DNA from: Syntrophales bacterium | Lineage (GTDB): Bacteria; Desulfobacterota; Syntrophia; Syntrophales; UBA2210 | DNA: 64,000 bases | Assembly: GCA_963666365.2 (NCBI GenBank) | Contig: CAXXNF010000002.1 | Span: 1,888,001-1,952,000 of the forward strand | Direction of reading: 5' to 3' | In this document: positions 3,377 to 13,461 of the stretch, one piece after another | Numbering within the stretch: the stretch's first letter is position 1 | Layout of the letters: every line of letters begins with the position of its first letter | The notes under the pieces: generated by a model | What the model saw: the letters and a program-made list of their open reading frames with translations, nothing else | Database searches by the model: none | What the model was told of the DNA's origin: nothing | Program-made: the position numbers and the translations under genes

Positions 3377-3614
3377 TTTCAACTCCTCTACCCCTCATGG
3401 TAAGGGTAATTTATCGGTACTATATACACACATATATGTCGGAACTGCAAGATTTCAGGCCGCCCTGTGGACACACTTTATCATGGAACTTCCCATTCAA
3501 ATCGTATAGAGTGCACTAAGTCCGTTGTTATAATAAAGGAGAAACATAAAATATTATAGTTCAATACTACTCAACTCGCTATGGCACAAGCTGGCGACTT
3601 CCAGAAAATTCACG

Positions 3615-3896
3615 ATGAAACAATCTATTTTACAGTGCCTGAGGAATTTCTTTTCGACGATTGATGCATCCCATCGAGAACGGGCGGCCGCACTTACCGT
3701 CGTCGAAATGGAGGAATTGGAAAACATTTTCGCACTTCTGCTTCTGGGTTCTTTCGTCGGGTTCCCTTCTCCGCCCTCCTTTCTGGCAGTAGAATTGTTG
3801 CCGTTCATGGAGAAAGAATTGACCATACTGACCGAACGAGCAAAAAATTCGGATGATATGCTCGCCACACTGTGTGGAACCTTGGGCATCGATTAA
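3615..3896 (+). CDS. Small hydrophobic protein of the type found with CstA/ArsA-family ATPases
   Basis: 93 aa with ELENIFALLLLGSFVGFPSPP...ELLPFM. Its stop directly abuts the next ATG (TAAATG). Confidence 0.75.
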   Translation: MKQSILQCLRNFFSTIDASHRERAAALTVVEMEELENIFALLLLGSFVGFPSPPSFLAVELLPFMEKELTILTERAKNSDDMLATLCGTLGID

Positions 3897-4817
3897 ATGA
3901 AGATTATTTTTTTCACCGGAAAAGGGGGCGTGGGAAAGTCGTCGCTGTCGGCAGCGGCGGCATGGCAATTGTCACAGACGCATCGAGTCCTGATAGTGTC
4001 GCTTGATCCCGCCCATAATCTCGGTGACATTTTCGGGGTACCCCTTCAGACTGCAACAGTCAGGTTCACCAACAGGCTTTTTCTCAAGGAAATAGATCTG
4101 AAGGGGCTTGCAAAGGAGTACCTTCAAAGAGAAATATCCGTTTTTTCCAATAGCTATGCCTATCTGAAGGCCCTCAACCTGGACACCTGTTTTTCGGTGC
4201 TCCAGTATTCCCCGGGAATAGAGGAATACGCCCTGCTCACGGGCATCGAAGCGACATTGCACAAAAAAGACTTTGATTATGTGATTTTCGATACTCCTCC
4301 CACGGGGCTTACTCTGAGGTTTCTTGCGCTGCCTTCAATTACCATTACCTGGCTAGAAAGGCTCATCGCGCTCAGAAGGAAAATTCTTGATAAGCGTTAC
4401 ACGATTCACCGAATCAGGGGCGCCGGCGGTGCGGGCGAAACCACACTCGCCTATAACGAGTTGAAGGACGATGTCCTTAGCAGGTTGCAATCTCTTGATC
4501 ACAATTACAGGCAGTTGAATGCAATACTTCAGGGAAGCGAATGCTCGATCGTGCTTGTTTTCAACCCCGACACCCTCTCACTGAAGGAATCGGAACGGCT
4601 GATTCAGGGGATTGAAGACCTGGGGCTCCCTTTGCGCCGGTTGATTCACAACAAGGTGCAGGACGATATGATCGACGTGATCGCTCGCATCGAGAAATCA
4701 ATTCTCTTAAAAGCAGGGCAGGTTCCTGTGACACGGATCGGGTTTATACGATCATTTCTTGACGACGAAAATCGAAAACTGTACGATGTTAATGTTGATT
4801 TAACTTCACTGTTTTGA
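3897..4817 (+). CDS. ArsA/Get3-family ATPase, single domain
   Basis: Deviant P-loop GKGGVGKS, switch I SLDPAHNL, SPGIEE, switch II FDTPPTG, HNK. Confidence 0.92.
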   Translation: MKIIFFTGKGGVGKSSLSAAAAWQLSQTHRVLIVSLDPAHNLGDIFGVPLQTATVRFTNRLFLKEIDLKGLAKEYLQREISVFSNSYAYLKALNLDTCFSVLQYSPGIEEYALLTGIEATLHKKDFDYVIFDTPPTGLTLRFLALPSITITWLERLIALRRKILDKRYTIHRIRGAGGAGETTLAYNELKDDVLSRLQSLDHNYRQLNAILQGSECSIVLVFNPDTLSLKESERLIQGIEDLGLPLRRLIHNKVQDDMIDVIARIEKSILLKAGQVPVTRIGFIRSFLDDENRKLYDVNVDLTSLF

Positions 4818-4836
4818 AAACCGGTGTGATAGAAGG

Positions 4837-5502
4837 ATGTTTCAGCACGATTATATTGCCCAGCAGCCAGTGTTTCTTCTGTTTATTGCCTTTTCGTTTA
4901 CCCTGACGTTTGGTTATTTTTGGGGAAGGAGGCAGAACAGGACTATTTTTCTTTCCGCGTTCAACGATCTTGTGAGTGTACTGCACCCGGACGATCAGAC
5001 CTTTACCAACATTGGAGGTGTCATAGGGTATCACGCCAATTTCTTTATCACCAAAAGGGAAGCGCTCATATCGCAGGTTGACGCGACCATCACGCTTCTT
5101 CCGCGACAGTCCTGGCTCTACTTTCCCATTTCCAGACTGTTCAGGCGTTATGACAGGCTCTTCATCACCTTCTACTTCAAAAAAAGACCGCCCGAAGAAG
5201 GGCATCTTATCGAAACCCGTTTCAATGGTTTCAGGAGTTCACACATCACCAGCACCGACCATCTTAATAAGGAACGGATTCAATGGGGGTCGCATGAATT
5301 TTTACTGTATTACCAGGGAAAAGCGGTACGGTCACAACTCCTTCGATTTATTGATAAAAATCCGGACCCCGGCGTCGTGCGGCACATGGCGATTGTTCCT
5401 GAGCAAAAAAAGGGATATTTGTTCATGATTCCAGGTAAGACAGGGATCGCCGCCTGCCTTGCGCCTGTATACCGGTGGTTTCTTTCCCAGGTGAAAGAAT
5501 AA
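4837..5502 (+). CDS. Single-pass membrane protein of unknown function (possible CCDC47/DUF1682-like)
   Basis: 221 aa, N-terminal hydrophobic helix (about aa 11-29) followed by GRRQN. Starts 19 bp after the ATPase. The family call is tentative. Confidence 0.75.
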   Translation: MFQHDYIAQQPVFLLFIAFSFTLTFGYFWGRRQNRTIFLSAFNDLVSVLHPDDQTFTNIGGVIGYHANFFITKREALISQVDATITLLPRQSWLYFPISRLFRRYDRLFITFYFKKRPPEEGHLIETRFNGFRSSHITSTDHLNKERIQWGSHEFLLYYQGKAVRSQLLRFIDKNPDPGVVRHMAIVPEQKKGYLFMIPGKTGIAACLAPVYRWFLSQVKE

Positions 5503-5688: not shown

Positions 5689-6789
5689 ATGGCTACACTA
5701 CAGTCGCTAGACGAACTCATGCCCTTAATGCACAGGCATGTAGGAATCTGCGTATCCATCTATATGCCCACGGCGAGAAAAGGAATGGAAACGCAGCAGA
5801 ATCAGATCCGGTATAAAAACATGCTTCGCCAGGCGGAAGAGCGACTTGCGGGAAGCGACCTGAGGCCGTCGGAAGTAAAAGAGTTCCTGGCTCCCGCTCA
5901 GGAATTTATCAGCGACGAGCTCTTCTGGCGAAATCAAAAGGATGGACTGGCTCTTTTTCTATCACAGGATTCATTCAACTACTTCAAGATTCCTCAAAGT
6001 TTCGAAGAGCTGGTAGTCGTATCGGAGCGCTTTCACTTCAAACCCCTCATTGGATTTCTCAGCAATGATGTCGATTTTTATATCCTTGCCGTCAGTCAGA
6101 ATAACATCAGACTGTTCGAATGCTCCCGTTATCAGAAAAAAGAGGTTAAGCTCGCAGGGATTCCTTTAAGCCTCCAGGAAGCGCTCAACCTTGATGACTT
6201 TGAAAAACGTCTTCAGCTGCACACGGGGAGCGAGGACACAAAAGCCCTGGTGCTGAAGTTTTTTCAGCAGATCGAACGGGGGCTTCGCGAACATTTTCGT
6301 AAAAAGGGCGCCCTGCTGGTATTTGCCGGGGTGGAGTATCTCTTCCCAATATACCGGGAGGCAACTACCTATCCTCACCTGCTGGATAACGGCATCTTCG
6401 GAAATCCGGAAACGCTGACCGCGGAAGAATTACACGAGCAGGCGTGGTCCTTCATCGAACCCATTGCAGAAGAAAAAAAGGAAGGCGCTATTGCGCGGTA
6501 TCATCAGAATGCAGGCACCGGTCTTACCTCCGGAGAATTGAAGGAAATCGTTCGATCTTCCTATCACGGCAGGGTGGCTGTGCTCTTTGTTCCCGTGGGC
6601 GTACAGCAATGGGGCAATTTTAACCGGAGTTCAAATGAGGTCACCCTTACCGGAACCACTGATGCGTCCGATGAAGATCTCTTCGATTTTGCCGCAATCC
6701 AGACACTGCTGAATGGAGGAATCGTCTACACCCTTGCACCTGAACAGATTCCCGGAGGAGAGCCGATCGCCGCCGTCTTCAGATACTGA
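5689..6789 (+). CDS. Bacterial aeRF1-like (baeRF3/baeRF7-type) protein
   Basis: CVSIYMPT, IRYKN, GLALF, FHFKPL, LVFAGVEYLFP, GNPE, GRV..LF and C-terminal AAVFRY. Strong AGGAGG RBS. Confidence 0.8.
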   Translation: MATLQSLDELMPLMHRHVGICVSIYMPTARKGMETQQNQIRYKNMLRQAEERLAGSDLRPSEVKEFLAPAQEFISDELFWRNQKDGLALFLSQDSFNYFKIPQSFEELVVVSERFHFKPLIGFLSNDVDFYILAVSQNNIRLFECSRYQKKEVKLAGIPLSLQEALNLDDFEKRLQLHTGSEDTKALVLKFFQQIERGLREHFRKKGALLVFAGVEYLFPIYREATTYPHLLDNGIFGNPETLTAEELHEQAWSFIEPIAEEKKEGAIARYHQNAGTGLTSGELKEIVRSSYHGRVAVLFVPVGVQQWGNFNRSSNEVTLTGTTDASDEDLFDFAAIQTLLNGGIVYTLAPEQIPGGEPIAAVFRY

Positions 6790-6921: not shown

Positions 6922-7557
6922 ATGGCTGTTGACAAGCGAAAAGAGCGGAAAAAAATTCTTGATGCCGTTACACGGCAGGACATTATCGATGCCGTCGCCG
7001 CAACCCTGATCAGTGAGGGGATGCAGGGATTTACCATGGATAAGGTAGCGGCAAAGGCCGGCGTCGCCAAAGGAACTCTCTATACTCATTTCAAAAGCAA
7101 GGAAGAGGCCATTGAGGTCACTATGGACTCCATCATAGAACCGCTTTCCGTCACACTGGACACTATTGCCCATTCCGATATGACACCGACTGAAAAGCTC
7201 ACAAAGTACACCTCGCTTCACTTCGCCTTTTTTGACGATCATCAGGACCTCTTTCGCGTCATTCTTTATGATCGCGAACAGGCCCATGCTCCCAAAGAGC
7301 GATTTCAGAACAGTCGATACTGGCAATTCGTACAGAAGCTCGCCGGCATATTCGAAGACGGCATGCACAGAGGGGAGTTCGCCCCCCTCCCCCCGCTTAA
7401 GATCTCGTCGATGTTCATCGAAGCCAACATATCGCTGGTGATGCAGCGTCTTGCGAATAAGGTAACCGGCAATATCGGAGAGGATGTGGCACTGGTAATG
7501 GGGTTGTTCTTGAGAGGAATTCTTTTGAACCCCGACACGCAACGAAAAAGAGGATAG
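6922..7557 (+). CDS. TetR/AcrR-family regulator
   Basis: HTH FTMDKVAAKAGVAKGTLYTHFKSKEE, directly upstream of an RND operon. Confidence 0.93.
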   Translation: MAVDKRKERKKILDAVTRQDIIDAVAATLISEGMQGFTMDKVAAKAGVAKGTLYTHFKSKEEAIEVTMDSIIEPLSVTLDTIAHSDMTPTEKLTKYTSLHFAFFDDHQDLFRVILYDREQAHAPKERFQNSRYWQFVQKLAGIFEDGMHRGEFAPLPPLKISSMFIEANISLVMQRLANKVTGNIGEDVALVMGLFLRGILLNPDTQRKRG

Positions 7558-7652
7558 GGCCGTCACAGTCATTGATCTACGGTCGTGCTCCAGGGTATTT
7601 TTTTATTCATCCCTATAGGTACAGCGAATCATAGAATAAGTGGAGACAGCGA

Positions 7653-8864
7653 ATGAAAATGAATCACAGAGGCATACTTGTCATAATTATGGTGATACTT
7701 ACCGGGCTTCTTCTACCGGCAGGATGCAACCGCGAAAATGCCCCGCAGGGACATCAGCAACAACGGGGCATACCCGAAGTTGCCGTCGTCGCGATACAGT
7801 CGAAACCTCTGGTTGTCACCAATGAATTGCCGGGGCGTACCTCGGCCAGCCTGGTCGCCGAAGTGCGTCCCCAGGTAAGCGGCATTATCAAGGAACGCCT
7901 TTTTAGAGAAGGTTCGGACGTCAAGGCCGGCCAGGTGCTTTTTCAAATCGATCCGGCACTCTTTCAGGCAGCGCTGGACAACGCCGAGGCCGGACTTTCC
8001 AGGGCCAAGGCCAATCTGTCGGCAATCCGGCTGAAGGTGAATCGTCTGCGAGAGTTGCTGGCCGACAAAGCGGTGAGCCGACAGGATTACGATGATGCCT
8101 CTGCGGCACTCAATCAGACCGAAGCGGATATCCGCTACTGGGAGGCCACGGTCAAAACGGCCCGCATAAATTTAAAGTATACCTCTGTCACTGCCCCTAT
8201 CTCAGGCCGCATCGGCAGATCTAACATTACAAAGGGCGCCCTGGTAACGGCGCAGCAACCCACCCCGCTGGCAACCATCCAGCAACTGGATCCGATGTTC
8301 GTGGATGTGCCCCAATCAACGGCCCAATTGATGCGTCTGCGCCGGCGGATGGAGCAGGGTCAACTCGACACAAAGGAACAGACCAGGAACACCGTCAATC
8401 TCATTCTGGAAGACGGCGCCGTATATCACTTAAGGGGCGAACTCAAGTTTCGTGATGTCACTGTCGATCCCACTACAGGAACCGTCATCGTACGCGCGGT
8501 ATTTCCAAACCCGGATACCATTCTTCTCCCGGGTATGTTTGTGCGGGCGTGGGTGGAAGAAGGGGTTGACAAAAACGCGATACTGGCGCCTCAGCAGGGG
8601 GTGTCCCGAGACCTCCGGGGAAATCCCTATGCGTTGATTGTAGATGCCGAGGATACCGTTCAGCAGCGGATGCTAACGGTCAGCAGGACCGTCGGCGATC
8701 AATGGCTGGTTTCATCGGGCCTTGAGGCAGGAGATCGAGTGATAGTCGAGGGGATACAAAAGGTACGACCGGGCGATAAAGTAAAAATCGTCCTTTACGA
8801 CCCGAAGGGAGGGAAAAAGAATACACTTGCGAACACTGCCTCTCCCACTGCACGATCAAATTAA
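7653..8864 (+). CDS. RND efflux periplasmic adaptor (AcrA/MexA-like lipoprotein)
   Basis: Lipobox PAGC, EVRPQVSGII, APISGRIG, LLPGMFVRA. Confidence 0.95.
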   Translation: MKMNHRGILVIIMVILTGLLLPAGCNRENAPQGHQQQRGIPEVAVVAIQSKPLVVTNELPGRTSASLVAEVRPQVSGIIKERLFREGSDVKAGQVLFQIDPALFQAALDNAEAGLSRAKANLSAIRLKVNRLRELLADKAVSRQDYDDASAALNQTEADIRYWEATVKTARINLKYTSVTAPISGRIGRSNITKGALVTAQQPTPLATIQQLDPMFVDVPQSTAQLMRLRRRMEQGQLDTKEQTRNTVNLILEDGAVYHLRGELKFRDVTVDPTTGTVIVRAVFPNPDTILLPGMFVRAWVEEGVDKNAILAPQQGVSRDLRGNPYALIVDAEDTVQQRMLTVSRTVGDQWLVSSGLEAGDRVIVEGIQKVRPGDKVKIVLYDPKGGKKNTLANTASPTARSN

Positions 8865-8879
8865 CGGAGGCTCCCGCTG

Positions 8880-11800
8880 ATGTTATCGAAGTTTTTCTTG
8901 AAGCGACCGGTTTTCGCCTGGGTTATCGCCATTATTATCATGGCGGCGGGTGGACTCGCCATCCACAATCTCCCCATTTCTCAGTATCCTCCCATTGGAC
9001 CGCCCACCATCGCCCTCTCTGCCTCCTACCCGGGCGCCTCGGCGGAAACCATTGAAAACAGCGTCACCCAGATCATAGAGCAGAAAATGACCGGTTTCGA
9101 AAATCTGCTCTATCTCTCGTCAACCAGCGATTCGGCGGGTACCTGCCGGATCGAGCTGACCTTCCGGGCCGGCACCGATCCGGACATTGCCTGGACGCAG
9201 GTACAGAATAAACTCCAGCTCGCCATGTCGAGCCTGCCCGAAGTGGTGCAGAAGCAGGGGGTGAACGTCCGTAAATCCACAAGGAATTACCTGCTGTTCG
9301 TGGGGCTTATTTCGGCGGACGGAAGTATGGACGGCAAAGACTTGAGGGACTATGCAAAATCCAATCTGGAGAGCGTACTGGCCAGGGTACCGGGCGTAGG
9401 CGAAGTGGAGGTCTTCGGCGCCGGTTACGCCATGCGCATCTGGTTCGACCCCGACAAATTGACCGCCTACGGTCTGACCGTGCAGGAAGTAATCACCGCA
9501 CTCGAAGCCTATAACGCCGAGGTTTCCGCCGGGCAGTTCGGAGGTACGCCGGCCGTAGAAGGCCAACGCCTGAACGCCACCATCGTTGTGCAGAATATGC
9601 TCAAAATGCCCGAAGAATTTGCTGCGGTTCCCATCCGTATTAATCCCGATGGGTCCATCGTACGGATCAGCGATATAGGCTGGACGGAACTGGGAACCGA
9701 GTATTACGATGTCGAGACCAGCTATAACGGAATGCCCGTCGCCGGCATCGCCATCCGTCAGGCAGCGGGCGCCAATGCACTAGATGCGGCCGATGCCGTC
9801 AAGGCGAAGATGAAGGAGATGGCGCCATTTCTGCCGCCGGGGATGAAGGCCGTCTATCCCCATGACACCACCCCCTTTATCAGGGTCGCCATCGACGAGG
9901 TGGTGAAGACCCTCATCGAGGCGATTATTCTGGTCTTTTTGGTGATGTGGCTTTTCCTCGGCAACATGCGGGCCACACTCATTCCGACCATCGCCGTCCC
10001 GGTAGTGATCCTTGGAACCTTTGCGATGCTGTCCTTTTTCGGCTTTTCAATCAACATGCTCACCATGTTCGCCATGGTGCTGGCCATCGGTCTTTTGGTG
10101 GATGACGCCATCGTGGTGGTGGAAAATGTGGAACGCATCATGGCGGAAGAGGGGCTACCCCCCAAGGAGGCAACGGCTAAGTCAATGGAGCAGATCACCA
10201 GTGCGCTCATCGGCATCGGACTGGTACTCTCGGCGGTCTTCGGCCCCATGGCATTTTTTCCCGGCTCCACTGGTGTCATCTATCGTCAGTTTTCCATCAC
10301 CATCATCGCCGCCATGCTTCTTTCGGTGGTGGTGGCATTGATCCTGACACCGGTCCTCTGCGCCTCACTGCTCAAACCGGTGCGTGCGGGGCACGAACCG
10401 TCGGAAAACGCGGTCTTTTTCCTGCGCCCCTTTTTCCGGCTCTTTGATCGTCTCTTCTTCGGACTGAGAGATGCCTACGTACGATTCGTCGGTCATTCCC
10501 TTTCCAGAACAGTTCGCTATATACTCGTGTTCCTGGCAATCGTCGCAGCCATGGGGATTCTCTTTTTGCGCATGCCCACCTCCTACCTGCCCGATGAAGA
10601 TCAGGGCTCGCTGTTCGCGCAGGTAATGCTCCCGAGCGGCTCTACGCTGGAGCAGACCATTGCGGTTTCAAGGCAGCTTGAACACTATTTCAACACAGAG
10701 GAAAAAGAGGTGATAGAGTCCACCTTCATGCTGTCCGGCTATGGGTTTTCCGGAAGGGCGCAGAATAACGGCATGGTGTTCATCAAGTTGAAAGACTGGA
10801 ATCTCAGGACCCGGGAAGATCAGAAAGTGAAGGCTGTTGCCGAAAGGGCCATGAAGCACCTTTCGAATATCCGCGGGGCAAGAATCTTTGTCTTTCCGCC
10901 TCCCGCCGTTGCCGAATTGGGAAGCGCCAAGGGATTTGATTTTCAGCTCCTTGACCGGGGCGGTCTCGGCCACAAGGAACTCATGGAGGCGCAATACCAG
11001 CTTCTTGACATCGCCGCCGGTGACCCCAGAATAACCTCAGTCCGCCCGAACAGTATGGAGGATGTCGCTGAATACCGTATCGACGTGGACTGGGAAAAGG
11101 CAGGTGCCCTTGGGGTGCCCATCACCGCGATCCATCGAACCATCTCGGCGTCCTTCGGAAGCGCCTACATCAATGATTTCGTTCAGGGAGGACGGGTCAA
11201 GAAGGTGTATGTACAGGCCGATGCCCCCTACCGCATGCTTCCCAAGGACCTGGAAAAACTCTATGTCCGAAACAGGGAAGGCAAAATGGTCCCTTTTTCC
11301 TCTTTTGCCTCATGCCGCTGGACTTCCGGATCACCCAGGCTCGCCCGTTTTAACGGCTTTCCCTCCATCAACATATGGGGAGAACCGGCACCGGGAAGAA
11401 GCTCGGGCGAGGCCATGCAGGCCATGGAAGAGGCAGTCCGGAAACTGCCCCGGGGCATCGGCTTCGACTGGTCAGGACTCTCCTACCAGGAAAAAATAGC
11501 CAGTACCCAGGCGCCGCTGCTCTATGCATTTTCCATATTTGTAATCTTTCTCTGTCTGGCTGCGCTGTATGAAAGCTGGACCATCCCTGTTTCCATTCTG
11601 ATCGTCCTTCCTCTGGGCGTAATCGGCGGCATTATCGCCACGAGCATGCGCGGACTGTCAAACGATGTCTATTTTCAGATCGGTCTTCTGACTACCCTGG
11701 GCCTTGCCACGAAAAACGCCATACTGATCGTTCAGTTTGCCAAAGACGGACTGGAAAAGGGTATGAGCCTTGTTGATGCCACACTGGAAGGAGCGAAGTT

Positions 11801-12050
11801 GAGATTCCGTCCTATCGTCATGACCTCGCTCGCCTTCGGTTTCGGCGTCCTTCCTCTCGCACTGACCAGCGGCGCGGGCGCCGGCGCGCAGAACGCCATC
11901 GGCACCAGCGTCCTGGGGGGCATGATCACCGCCACCGTGCTCATCGTTATTTTCGCTCCCCTCTTTTTTGTGCTGGTTGAAAGATTCTTCGGAAGAAAAG
12001 GCAGGCATGCCGCATCCGATGCGCCTGATATCACATTACCGGAGGATTGA
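8880..12050 (+). CDS. RND efflux permease, HAE1 family (AcrB/MexB-like)
   Basis: 1056 aa. RPVFAWVIAI, GLLVDDAIVVVENVER, KNAILIV, RFRPIVMTSLAF. Confidence 0.97.
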   Translation: MLSKFFLKRPVFAWVIAIIIMAAGGLAIHNLPISQYPPIGPPTIALSASYPGASAETIENSVTQIIEQKMTGFENLLYLSSTSDSAGTCRIELTFRAGTDPDIAWTQVQNKLQLAMSSLPEVVQKQGVNVRKSTRNYLLFVGLISADGSMDGKDLRDYAKSNLESVLARVPGVGEVEVFGAGYAMRIWFDPDKLTAYGLTVQEVITALEAYNAEVSAGQFGGTPAVEGQRLNATIVVQNMLKMPEEFAAVPIRINPDGSIVRISDIGWTELGTEYYDVETSYNGMPVAGIAIRQAAGANALDAADAVKAKMKEMAPFLPPGMKAVYPHDTTPFIRVAIDEVVKTLIEAIILVFLVMWLFLGNMRATLIPTIAVPVVILGTFAMLSFFGFSINMLTMFAMVLAIGLLVDDAIVVVENVERIMAEEGLPPKEATAKSMEQITSALIGIGLVLSAVFGPMAFFPGSTGVIYRQFSITIIAAMLLSVVVALILTPVLCASLLKPVRAGHEPSENAVFFLRPFFRLFDRLFFGLRDAYVRFVGHSLSRTVRYILVFLAIVAAMGILFLRMPTSYLPDEDQGSLFAQVMLPSGSTLEQTIAVSRQLEHYFNTEEKEVIESTFMLSGYGFSGRAQNNGMVFIKLKDWNLRTREDQKVKAVAERAMKHLSNIRGARIFVFPPPAVAELGSAKGFDFQLLDRGGLGHKELMEAQYQLLDIAAGDPRITSVRPNSMEDVAEYRIDVDWEKAGALGVPITAIHRTISASFGSAYINDFVQGGRVKKVYVQADAPYRMLPKDLEKLYVRNREGKMVPFSSFASCRWTSGSPRLARFNGFPSINIWGEPAPGRSSGEAMQAMEEAVRKLPRGIGFDWSGLSYQEKIASTQAPLLYAFSIFVIFLCLAALYESWTIPVSILIVLPLGVIGGIIATSMRGLSNDVYFQIGLLTTLGLATKNAILIVQFAKDGLEKGMSLVDATLEGAKLRFRPIVMTSLAFGFGVLPLALTSGAGAGAQNAIGTSVLGGMITATVLIVIFAPLFFVLVERFFGRKGRHAASDAPDITLPED

Positions 12051-12054
12051 TAAT

Positions 12055-13461
12055 ATGAATAGAATCCTGTTCCTCATGCCCTTCATGCTGGGCATCGTCC
12101 TGTGCGCCTGTTCCCTGGCCCCCGAGTATACGCGGCCTGCGGCGCCCGTCCCTGAAAACTGGCCCACCGGCAAGGCGTACAGGGATGTGCAAACCGCCGC
12201 CGCGACAGATGTGGAGTTACAGTGGAAGGAATGCTTTACCGACATAAGGCTTCAGCAGATCATTGAAACGGCGCTGAAGAATAATCGAGACCTGCGCATT
12301 GCCGCTCTGAATGCAAGGAAGGTTCGCGCCCTTTGCGGGATTCAGCGGGCCGAACTGTTTCCCACGATCAACACGACCGGCGGCATGGTAAAAGAGCGGA
12401 TTCCCGCTGATCTCTCCTCCTCAGGAAAATCAATGACGGCGGAACAGTACAGCGTCTCTCTGGGCATCGCGTCCTGGGAAATCGATTTCTTCGGCCGCAT
12501 CCGCAGTTTGGAAGATCGGGCCTTGCAGGAATACCTCGCCACGGAACAGGCGCGCCGGAGCGTACACATTTCGCTGATCTCCGGTATCGTCAATGCATAC
12601 CTGACTCTTGCAGCGGATCGGGCAAACCTTCAATTAGCACGGTTTACCCTGGAGGCTCAACAGGCCTCGTATACCCTTATCAGGAAACGTTTTGAGGCAG
12701 GGTTTGCCACCGAATTGGACCTCCGCCGGGCACAGACACAGGTTGACACGGCGCGAGGCAATGTGGCCCGTTATACCCAATTGACAGCACTGGACCGGAA
12801 TGCCCTGGATCTTTTGATAGGCGCTCCCGTTTCCGAGGAACTTCTTCCCGCAGACTTGAACAGTGTGACCTCCCCAAAGGATATTTCCCCCGGACTCTCT
12901 TCCGAGGTGCTGCTGAATCGACCTGACATTATGGCGGCGGAGCACCGGCTCAAGGGGGCCTACGCCTACATAGGCGCCGCCCGGGCGGCATTCTTCCCGC
13001 GCATTTCTCTTACCTCATCGATCGGAACGGCGAGTGCGGAACTGTCCGATCTCTTCGGTGCGGGCTCCGCGACCTGGAGCTTTGTGCCCCGGATTTCGAT
13101 ACCGATTTTTGACGCCCGCACCTGGGCGGCGTTACGGGTCAGCAAAGCGGATCGGGAGATCATCCTGACACAGTATGAAAAGACCATACAAGTCGCCTTC
13201 AGAGAAGTTGCCGACGCCCTTGCCATACGCGGCACGGTAGACCAGCGCTTAGCAGCCCAGCAATCGCTGGTTGATGCGGTTTCGGAGACGTACCGCCTCT
13301 CCAATAAGCGTTATACCATGGGGGTAGACAGCTATCTGGGCGTCCTCGATGCGCAGCGCATGCTTTACGCAGCCCAGGAGGGATTGATCGCGCTTCAGCT
13401 GGCGCGGCTTGTCAATCGGGTAGCTCTCTATAACGTCCTTGGGGGTAGCCGAGAACAGTAG
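12055..13461 (+). CDS. Outer membrane factor lipoprotein (OprM/NodT family)
   Basis: Signal peptide with ACSLAP, NNRDLR, WEIDFFGR, RPDIMAAEH, LYNVLGG. ATG at 12055 chosen. Confidence 0.93.
   Translation: MNRILFLMPFMLGIVLCACSLAPEYTRPAAPVPENWPTGKAYRDVQTAAATDVELQWKECFTDIRLQQIIETALKNNRDLRIAALNARKVRALCGIQRAELFPTINTTGGMVKERIPADLSSSGKSMTAEQYSVSLGIASWEIDFFGRIRSLEDRALQEYLATEQARRSVHISLISGIVNAYLTLAADRANLQLARFTLEAQQASYTLIRKRFEAGFATELDLRRAQTQVDTARGNVARYTQLTALDRNALDLLIGAPVSEELLPADLNSVTSPKDISPGLSSEVLLNRPDIMAAEHRLKGAYAYIGAARAAFFPRISLTSSIGTASAELSDLFGAGSATWSFVPRISIPIFDARTWAALRVSKADREIILTQYEKTIQVAFREVADALAIRGTVDQRLAAQQSLVDAVSETYRLSNKRYTMGVDSYLGVLDAQRMLYAAQEGLIALQLARLVNRVALYNVLGGSREQ

Follow-up and report, generated by a model that had tools for sequence, protein, structure and literature searches.

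A cstX-arsA-cstY gene trio lying apart from cstA in a Syntrophales genome, with a predicted CCDC47-like fold in CstY

Which process is served by an ATPase of the Get3/ArsA class whose gene is tightly packed between those of two smaller proteins? The question is raised by a locus in a 64,000-nucleotide (nt) stretch of DNA from a Syntrophales bacterium (assembly GCA_963666365.2, contig CAXXNF010000002.1, positions 1,888,001 to 1,952,000 of the forward strand). We refer to this whole stretch as the window and number it from its first letter. A sequence-only reading, made by a model that saw the letters and a list of open reading frames (ORFs), had proposed that the three genes form a candidate module for membrane-protein biogenesis rather than for arsenic resistance. 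As judged from their sequences, they are cstX, an arsA homologue and cstY, the accessory genes of a conserved cstA-cstX-arsA-cstY module. The ORF calls place them on the same strand, as follows (aa, amino acids):

3615..3896, + strand: cstX, an ORF of 93 aa, a size that fits the ~90-aa CstX of Castillo and Saier
3897..4817, + strand: single-domain ArsA/Get3-class P-loop ATPase (the arsA homologue of cstA clusters), 306 aa, matching PF02374 and TIGR00345
4837..5502, + strand: cstY ('mini-CCDC47'), 221 aa, with a short N-terminus, one predicted membrane helix and a putatively cytoplasmic alpha/beta domain (ORF and AlphaFold2 model)

The TAA of cstX abuts the ATG of the ATPase gene, and a 19-nt spacer with a purine-rich, GAAGG-like site separates the latter from cstY. 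The sequence-only reading had described three tightly coupled genes, and its coordinates, sizes and motif positions were all correct.

The cluster to which we assign the trio has been in print since 2010; the window departs from it in a bacterial CstY and in a trio detached from cstA, and a CCDC47-like fold is predicted for its CstY. In the passages of their paper on which we draw throughout, Castillo and Saier (Int J Microbiol, PMC2963123) describe a SEED gene-context cluster of cstA, a ~90-aa CstX, a single-domain ArsA homologue of ~300-330 aa and, in five archaea, a ~210-aa single-helix CstY. They report co-evolution of CstA, CstX and the ATPase, find no ars genes in any cstA cluster, state that cstX is never encoded without cstA, and propose that the ATPase energises CstA with CstX as a linker. 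The parts found here match that cluster in order and in size (93, 306 and 221 aa), share the absence of ars genes and have cstA as their partner in relatives. The paper's CstY is confined to five archaea, whereas the one described here is bacterial and occurs in Syntrophales-type genomes and in Spirochaetota; a likeness of CstY to CCDC47 is not mentioned in those passages.

Loci with cstY were collected from genome_contigs with a pattern derived from a six-sequence alignment, a sampling that is biased towards close relatives. It yielded 39 loci, six from Syntrophales or deltaproteobacterial metagenome-assembled genomes (MAGs) and 33 from Spirochaetota MAGs. The order cstX-ATPase-cstY was the same in 38 of them, the 39th having no upstream DNA. 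Directly upstream, on the same strand, the relatives carry an ORF of 560-600 aa, and all seven such ORFs that were scanned encode CstA (PF02554, 1e-121 to 1e-128). A tblastn search with the CstA of our own genome extended this to 36 of the 39 loci, that is, to every one of the 36 that have upstream DNA. A second sample, an even set of 401 genomes of the phylum, contained 14 CstY loci besides our own; cstA lies upstream in 13 and the full order cstA-cstX-ATPase-cstY is present in 12. The one locus without upstream cstA is a weak CstY match with a different layout (G002). Among the 13 strong loci, 12 have the full trio after cstA, and the thirteenth (G181; L067 3223-5531, G181:C60) has cstA followed directly by cstY, with neither cstX nor an ATPase gene nearby and no CstX match in the genome. 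Median spacers in the module loci are 15 and 9 nt, with overlaps at some loci. The linkage of the three genes that the sequence-only reading had suggested is thus conserved across two phyla (38/39 genome_contigs loci and 12/14 phylum loci other than our own). Two further observations were made at individual loci. In one spirochaete MAG the ATPase gene is split into ORFs of 150 and 176 aa (L028 4051-4984), through a frameshift or a sequencing error; in another locus (L021 6390-7304) the trio is followed by an uncharacterised gene and then by a ketopantoate-reductase-like gene (Pfam ApbA).

The trio is therefore encoded in one cluster with cstA in relatives and not in this window, where no cstA remnant was found upstream of cstX. 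We file it under the module despite the absence of an adjacent cstA because its three proteins are orthologues of the cstA-linked ones. The only cstA copy found in this genome (C2:542158-543729) lies ~1.35 Mb away. It is intact (578 aa, 417.5 bits) and ~70% identical to cassette-linked cstA genes. This distance explains why the partner gene escaped the sequence-only reading, and it makes the window an exception to the statement that cstX is never encoded without cstA (PMC2963123, in the passages used). In four of five relatives examined, the single cstA is cassette-linked. The fifth, a genome of the same family (G149), has only a 5'-truncated cstA beside its trio (L061 2447-3676, G149:C70; also L080). 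This ORF encodes 409 aa that align to positions 238-559 of the 560-position profile, and the genome yielded no further copy; the truncation could be real decay or an assembly artefact. Taken together, the distant cstA here, the cassette-linked cstA genes of relatives and the truncated copy in G149 show that the locus has been rearranged in this lineage. Downstream of the detached cstA lie panC- and panD-like genes, as read from their translations (L060 3500-4570). With the ketopantoate-reductase-like gene noted above, a pantothenate-pathway neighbourhood is possible.

CstY is less widespread than the remainder of the module. A CstY match was obtained in 15 of the 401 sampled genomes, compared with CstX-like matches in 60, of which 18 are strong (E<=1e-13) and 42 further ones score ~25-30 bits, some with in-frame stops or tandem copies. 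Of the 18 genomes whose CstX match is strong, 13 also gave a CstY match. When 12 CstY-negative CstX loci were examined, cstA was found at 10 and an ATPase match nearby at nine. The weak CstX-like loci of 25-30 bits (for example G291:C42:10160-10622, G008:C484:591-1141, G121:C22:21551-22098 and G036:C307:8144-8615) probably represent a two-paralogue form of the module: among seven examined, cstA is present at L100, L102, L104, L105 and L111 and not at L101 and L108, and a divergent ATPase match accompanies it at L100, L102, L105 and L111. CstY is, then, an optional addition to a wider cstA-cstX-ATPase module.

What kind of protein is this optional component? The sequence-only reading had proposed a likeness to CCDC47, based on the motifs YFWGRRQNR at aa 27-35 and ITLLPRQSWL...YDRLFI at aa 85-110. 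These motifs contain the positions that vary least in the family: across 94 diverse homologues, the conservation of G30, N34, P89, R90 and D106 reaches 90% or more. The match of CstY to Pfam PF07946 aligns aa 15-116 to profile positions 7-123, a region that spans both motifs, with 17.9 bits (E 0.0018), below the gathering cut-off of 27.7; a six-frame search gave 16.7 bits. PF07946 was matched at E<=0.01 by 15 of the 94 diverse homologues (best 6.2e-5), with no other family recurring, and a precomputed match is borne by 3 of the 120 close homologues listed. The family itself is sizeable, with 620 matches in the clustered database and 197 representatives at E<=0.001 in a 50%-identity library. 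Searched against the sequences of solved structures, CstY profiles retrieved no CCDC47 at E<=10, whether built on the full length, on one PF07946-matching homologue or on the N-terminal half. Longer or fused CstY relatives, eukaryotic CCDC47 included, were not found at E<=0.01 in a search that itself grades this outcome as weak evidence. Because the reverse sequence searches missed CCDC47, the case for homology rests on the fold together with the weak collinear profile match. In the Atlas, a cluster near CstY (0.96) is 70% archaeal, which we treat as a lead only.

At the level of the predicted fold, the CCDC47 likeness holds, with sequence support below threshold. A very confident AlphaFold2 model built on the 94-sequence alignment (predicted local distance difference test (pLDDT) 95.1, predicted template-modelling score (pTM) 0.89) starts with ~10 residues ahead of the membrane helix; behind this long N-terminal helix comes an alpha/beta domain rich in beta structure, and the model ends at residue 221 with a single short helix (204-219). 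Foldseek, which had been suggested as a check, ranked two multipass-translocon chains first (7tm3_4, E 1.2e-7; 9i78_4, E 5.9e-7), and re-alignment gave Z 17.2 for 7tm3_4 (root-mean-square deviation (rmsd) 3.0 Å over 207 residues), 15.6 for 9i78_4 and 11.5 for 6w6l_7. An exhaustive search of 48,161 representative chains, independent of Foldseek, was led by 7tut_4 (Z 17.1) and 9i78_4 (15.6); TtfA came next at 9.9 and all others stayed at or below 6.7. We take the matched chains of 7TM3, 7TUT, 9I78 and 6W6L to be CCDC47 from the entry titles rather than from chain names, because no component other than CCDC47 is both common to these entries and built of a single helix plus a large globular cytosolic domain. 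The earlier claim of a CCDC47-like third protein accordingly stands for the predicted fold (Z 17.2, 17.1, 15.6 and 11.5) and for the position of both motifs within the PF07946 region, whereas the Pfam score itself falls short of its cut-off.

In the sources as far as we use them, CCDC47 has a single membrane helix, a large globular cytosolic domain and, at its C-terminus, a coiled coil extending to the ribosome exit and Sec61 (PMC7505659), and it is a subunit of the PAT intramembrane chaperone (PMC9816642). The model of CstY shares the layout of one membrane helix followed by a cytosolic alpha/beta domain, with 207-208 of its 221 residues superposing at 3.0-3.1 Å and Z ~17. The domain is predicted to be cytoplasmic, oriented as in CCDC47, because the basic residues GRRQNR follow the helix (positive-inside rule). 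In contrast to CCDC47, CstY has no signal peptide, luminal domain or C-terminal coiled coil, its structure-based identity is 9-11%, and its gene partners are an ATPase and a permease gene instead of a ribosome-bound translocon. The best fold match outside CCDC47 is TtfA (PDB 6T84; Z 9.9 over 151 residues), a mycobacterial accessory factor that is found in complex with the multi-pass transporter MmpL3 (PMC6593404, in the part used). This match is far weaker than that to CCDC47 (rmsd 4.3 Å, 11% identity). We know of no ATPase partner of TtfA. The three predicted or solved folds hint at a membrane-anchored platform shared by TtfA, CstY and CCDC47. The CstY domain also resembles type III secretion chaperones, which hold unfolded polypeptide, at Z 5-7.3.

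The ATPase is a single-domain member of the ArsA/Get3 family, as had been read from the sequence (PF02374 ArsA_ATPase, 1.1e-54), and it scores above the cut-off of TIGR00345 (163.4 versus 135 bits). The P-loop GKGGVGKS with its leading lysine (G8-S15), DPAHN (D37-N41) and DTPPTG (within D132-T139, T133 being nearly invariant) are invariant or nearly so in 31 aligned orthologues, so that the enzyme looks catalytically competent. Its nearest solved sequences are ARSA1 (5zme, 3.5e-42) and an archaeal-type Get3 homologue (3ug6, 1.2e-30), followed by eukaryotic Get3 proteins at 1e-24 to 1e-16. The family, the deviant Walker A with its signature lysine and the switch motifs are thus shared with Get3/TRC40. 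Two hallmarks of Get3 are a CxxC zinc site at the dimer interface and a methionine-rich, hydrophobic client groove. The former is absent from all 31 orthologues (0/31), in line with the sequence-only reading, and no column of the alignment holds a conserved cysteine. As to the latter, the helical segments of the window protein (residues 55-125 and 138-215) contain no methionine and have hydrophobic fractions of 0.46 and 0.44. The ATPase also differs from Get3/TRC40 in being encoded in a permease-linked module and not with Get1/Get2-type receptors. A long helical insert after DTPPTG had been noted; such a helical subdomain is ordinary in this ATPase family.

CstX probably belongs to the DUF7990 family: all of the 120 homologues listed (up to 82% identical) bear a precomputed match to PF25952.1, named DUF7990 in the Atlas, where the top three clusters score 0.96-0.97 and are 98-100% DUF7990. 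Sixteen columns are invariant in 37 sequences, among them ELEN, GSF-G and a P-x-P-P turn. The AlphaFold2 model is of low confidence (pLDDT 70.5) and consists of helices 2-48 and 55-90, joined at the invariant G-x-P-x-P-P turn with a hydrophobic tip; a fold search with this low-confidence model returned no meaningful match (best Foldseek E-value 9.8) and hence no sign of kinship with Asterix, the small partner of CCDC47. CstX had been called hydrophobic, which overstates its character: the best 19-residue Kyte-Doolittle mean is a moderate 1.56, and the stretch straddles the invariant proline turn that breaks it. From its sequence, this stretch is borderline as a membrane span.

The immediate surroundings of the trio in the window comprise the following further features:

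3525..3552, + strand: promoter-like site (TTGTTA, 16 nt, TAAAAT), from a consensus scan only, 9/12 matches
5689-6789, + strand: baeRF family 3 protein, 366 aa (PF18845, 3.4e-43)
6922-13461, + strand: TetR regulator, membrane-fusion protein, AcrB-type pump and outer-membrane factor, an ordinary resistance-nodulation-division (RND) efflux operon

A gap of 232 nt separates cstX from a divergent PAS histidine-kinase gene and contains the promoter-like site, which is weak evidence given that the scan of the region returned 10 such sites versus 4.2 expected. On the 3' side of cstY, 186 nt precede the baeRF-family gene, behind which the TetR regulator and the RND efflux system follow. The six neighbours scanned within ~8 kb (a LuxR-type response regulator, the PAS histidine kinase, the TetR regulator and the three-part RND efflux system) include no ars gene, as the sequence-only reading had stated. 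The baeRF/Balon-like gene was considered as a fourth member of the module and rejected: outside this window it directly adjoins the trio in the same-family genome (L061) only; in L021 and L023 it follows at a downstream distance of 3-4 kb, and the remaining loci show no linkage. Its product also matches the AOC03_06830 ribosome-hibernation-factor model below the cut-off (137.1 bits versus 330).

How might these parts work together? The account that we favour, tentatively and at somewhat less than an even chance, is that the ATPase homodimer is docked by CstX and CstY onto CstA and drives or gates transport. We infer both the physical contacts and the direction of coupling from the genes, motifs, fold and cstA linkage described above. 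Judging by the signature lysine in its deviant Walker A motif, the ATPase would form a homodimer in a nucleotide-dependent manner, and the two small partners would hold it at the inner face of the membrane. CstX may act as a helical hairpin with a hydrophobic tip that partners the ATPase. CstY, a putative single-pass protein with its N-terminus out and its C-terminus in, would offer its cytoplasmic CCDC47-like domain as a docking platform. The three proteins would then link the multi-pass CstA permease to the binding and hydrolysis of ATP and thereby drive or gate substrate uptake, in parallel to ArsA, which turns the ArsB carrier into an ATP-driven pump. As for the substrate, E. coli relatives of CstA carry pyruvate, and btsT is annotated as a pyruvate:H+ symporter; peptide carriage by CstA is only possible according to the passages of Castillo and Saier (PMC2963123) considered here.

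Six lines of evidence lead us to prefer the docking of the ATPase on CstA: the ArsA-ArsB precedent, the tight coupling of the genes, the reported co-evolution (PMC2963123, in the passages used), the likeness of CstY to TtfA, the genome with only cstA and cstY, and the arrangement at E. coli btsT. The abstract of PMC2963123 provides the precedent of an ATPase of this family that docks on a secondary carrier and makes it ATP-driven. The present ATPase differs from ArsA in having one domain instead of two, no conserved cysteines, the Switch II motif DTPPTGL and no ars neighbours. The corresponding Switch II motif of ArsA is DTAPTGH. In E. coli K-12, the same-strand genes btsT-yjiX-yjiA (L081 3910-7280) likewise encode first a carrier of the CstA family, next a small protein and then a P-loop NTPase, although no relation of YjiX to CstX is detectable (hhalign probability 0.2%), YjiA is annotated as a GTPase of another family, and a CstY-like gene is missing. 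Since E. coli CstA-family carriers work without such an ATPase, the NTPase would seem to add a function rather than to be needed to build the carrier.

Several points weigh against this account. Membrane-protein biogenesis is the process for which both the ATPase family and the CCDC47 fold are best known, and this speaks for the rival chaperone reading. The trio is unlinked from cstA here, so that for this organism we can only assume that it acts jointly with CstA, and G149, the closest sampled relative, retains the trio next to a 5'-truncated cstA with no other copy found, which would be odd if the trio served CstA alone. The smaller number of genomes with CstY (15/401) than with CstX-like matches (60/401) argues that CstY is dispensable for the role of the core module. 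Finally, the titles and abstracts that we surveyed show no experiment on any cstA-cstX-arsA-cstY module and describe no prokaryotic CCDC47 relative; subscription journals and supplements may hold more.

The most serious rival, in our estimate rather unlikely, is a dedicated assembly chaperone: the many-helix CstA would be inserted, folded or quality-controlled with the aid of CstX, the Get3-class ATPase and the CCDC47-like CstY. This prokaryotic counterpart of the PAT/GET systems comes near to the proposal of the sequence-only reading, though with a single client. The chaperone reading draws on the same structural results, namely Z 17.2, 17.1 and 15.6 of CstY to the CCDC47-containing translocon entries with the next match at 9.9, and on the membership of CCDC47 in the PAT chaperone (PMC9816642, in the part used). 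The matches of the ATPase to solved Get3 sequences (1e-24 to 1e-16), the invariance of cstA as a neighbour in relatives and the resemblance of the CstY domain to type III secretion chaperones (Z 5-7.3) speak for it as well. Yet a shared fold is no proof of a shared function, missing from CstY are the regions through which CCDC47 contacts the ribosome exit and Sec61 (no C-terminal coiled coil, no luminal domain), and the ATPase lacks the CxxC of Get3 (0/31) and probably its methionine-rich groove, neither helical segment of the window protein having a methionine. Moreover, E. coli makes its CstA-family carriers without such factors. A stable complex would equally well account for the tight coupling, which looks stoichiometric, and for the co-evolution that the passages used of PMC2963123 report for CstA, CstX and the ATPase. 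The membrane-protein biogenesis module of the sequence-only reading is only partly retained: nothing points to arsenic, whereas the conserved partner is a single transporter gene, cstA, which does not suit a general membrane-protein role. On our reading, the trio is neither an arsenic system nor a general tail-anchor pathway. A bolder version, in which CstY would be a prokaryotic ancestor-type of CCDC47 and would form with CstX and the Get3-class ATPase an ATP-driven intramembrane assembly machine for multi-pass CstA, strikes us as unlikely.

The separation from cstA in this genome admits two other explanations. The trio may act on its own here, either on another client or with CstX as a hairpin client that the ATPase delivers to a CstY receptor. 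Such autonomy would fit the 232-nt gap in front of the trio, which contains a promoter-like site but no remnant of cstA, the three intact reading frames that keep the invariant residues of their families, the same-family genome that keeps its trio beside a truncated cstA without another copy found, and the hydrophobic tip of CstX, which is short for a membrane span. We nevertheless consider autonomy distinctly improbable: an intact cstA of the cassette type still exists in the genome, cstA adjoins every other locus with enough upstream DNA, cstX is never found without cstA in the passages used of Castillo and Saier (PMC2963123), and no alternative conserved neighbour was found, the downstream baeRF gene being common to close relatives only. 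A decaying, functionless orphan of the rearrangement would be suggested by this being the only locus seen without an adjacent cstA, by the truncated cstA, which shows that the corresponding locus of the closest sampled relative is damaged too, and by the split ATPase gene of one spirochaete locus. Against decay, the three genes show no stops or frameshifts and keep all invariant family positions as well as the gene junctions, and other assemblies encode a 91%-identical CstY and an 82%-identical CstX; we regard it as very improbable. That the ATPase is a classical ArsA arsenite-efflux ATPase with two accessory proteins has practically no standing; all that speaks for it is the name of the family (PF02374) and the fact that part of the protein matches TIGR04291, the ArsA equivalog model. 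That match covers residues 3-154 only and reaches 96.3 bits versus a cut-off of 650, the protein has one domain of 306 aa versus a duplicated protein of ~580 aa, no cysteine is conserved among the 31 orthologues, and ars genes are absent both from the six neighbours scanned within ~8 kb and from all cstA clusters in the passages used of PMC2963123.

The module joins an ATPase of the Get3/ArsA class to the CstA nutrient carrier and is represented in 60 of the 401 genomes that sample the phylum. Should CstA be driven or gated by the ATPase, this would be a second case in which this ATPase family turns a secondary carrier into a primary one, with consequences for how low-energy anaerobes scavenge carbon. 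The fold predicted for CstY, with its likeness to CCDC47, would be a minimal, genetically tractable version of a eukaryotic multipass-translocon domain, and it raises the question of the origin of the PAT complex. Should the ancestor-type reading of CstY be true, the PAT/GET logic of the endoplasmic reticulum would have a bacterial and archaeal forerunner in a genetically tractable four-gene operon. The window, with its three helper genes separated from cstA, is a natural experiment on this association.

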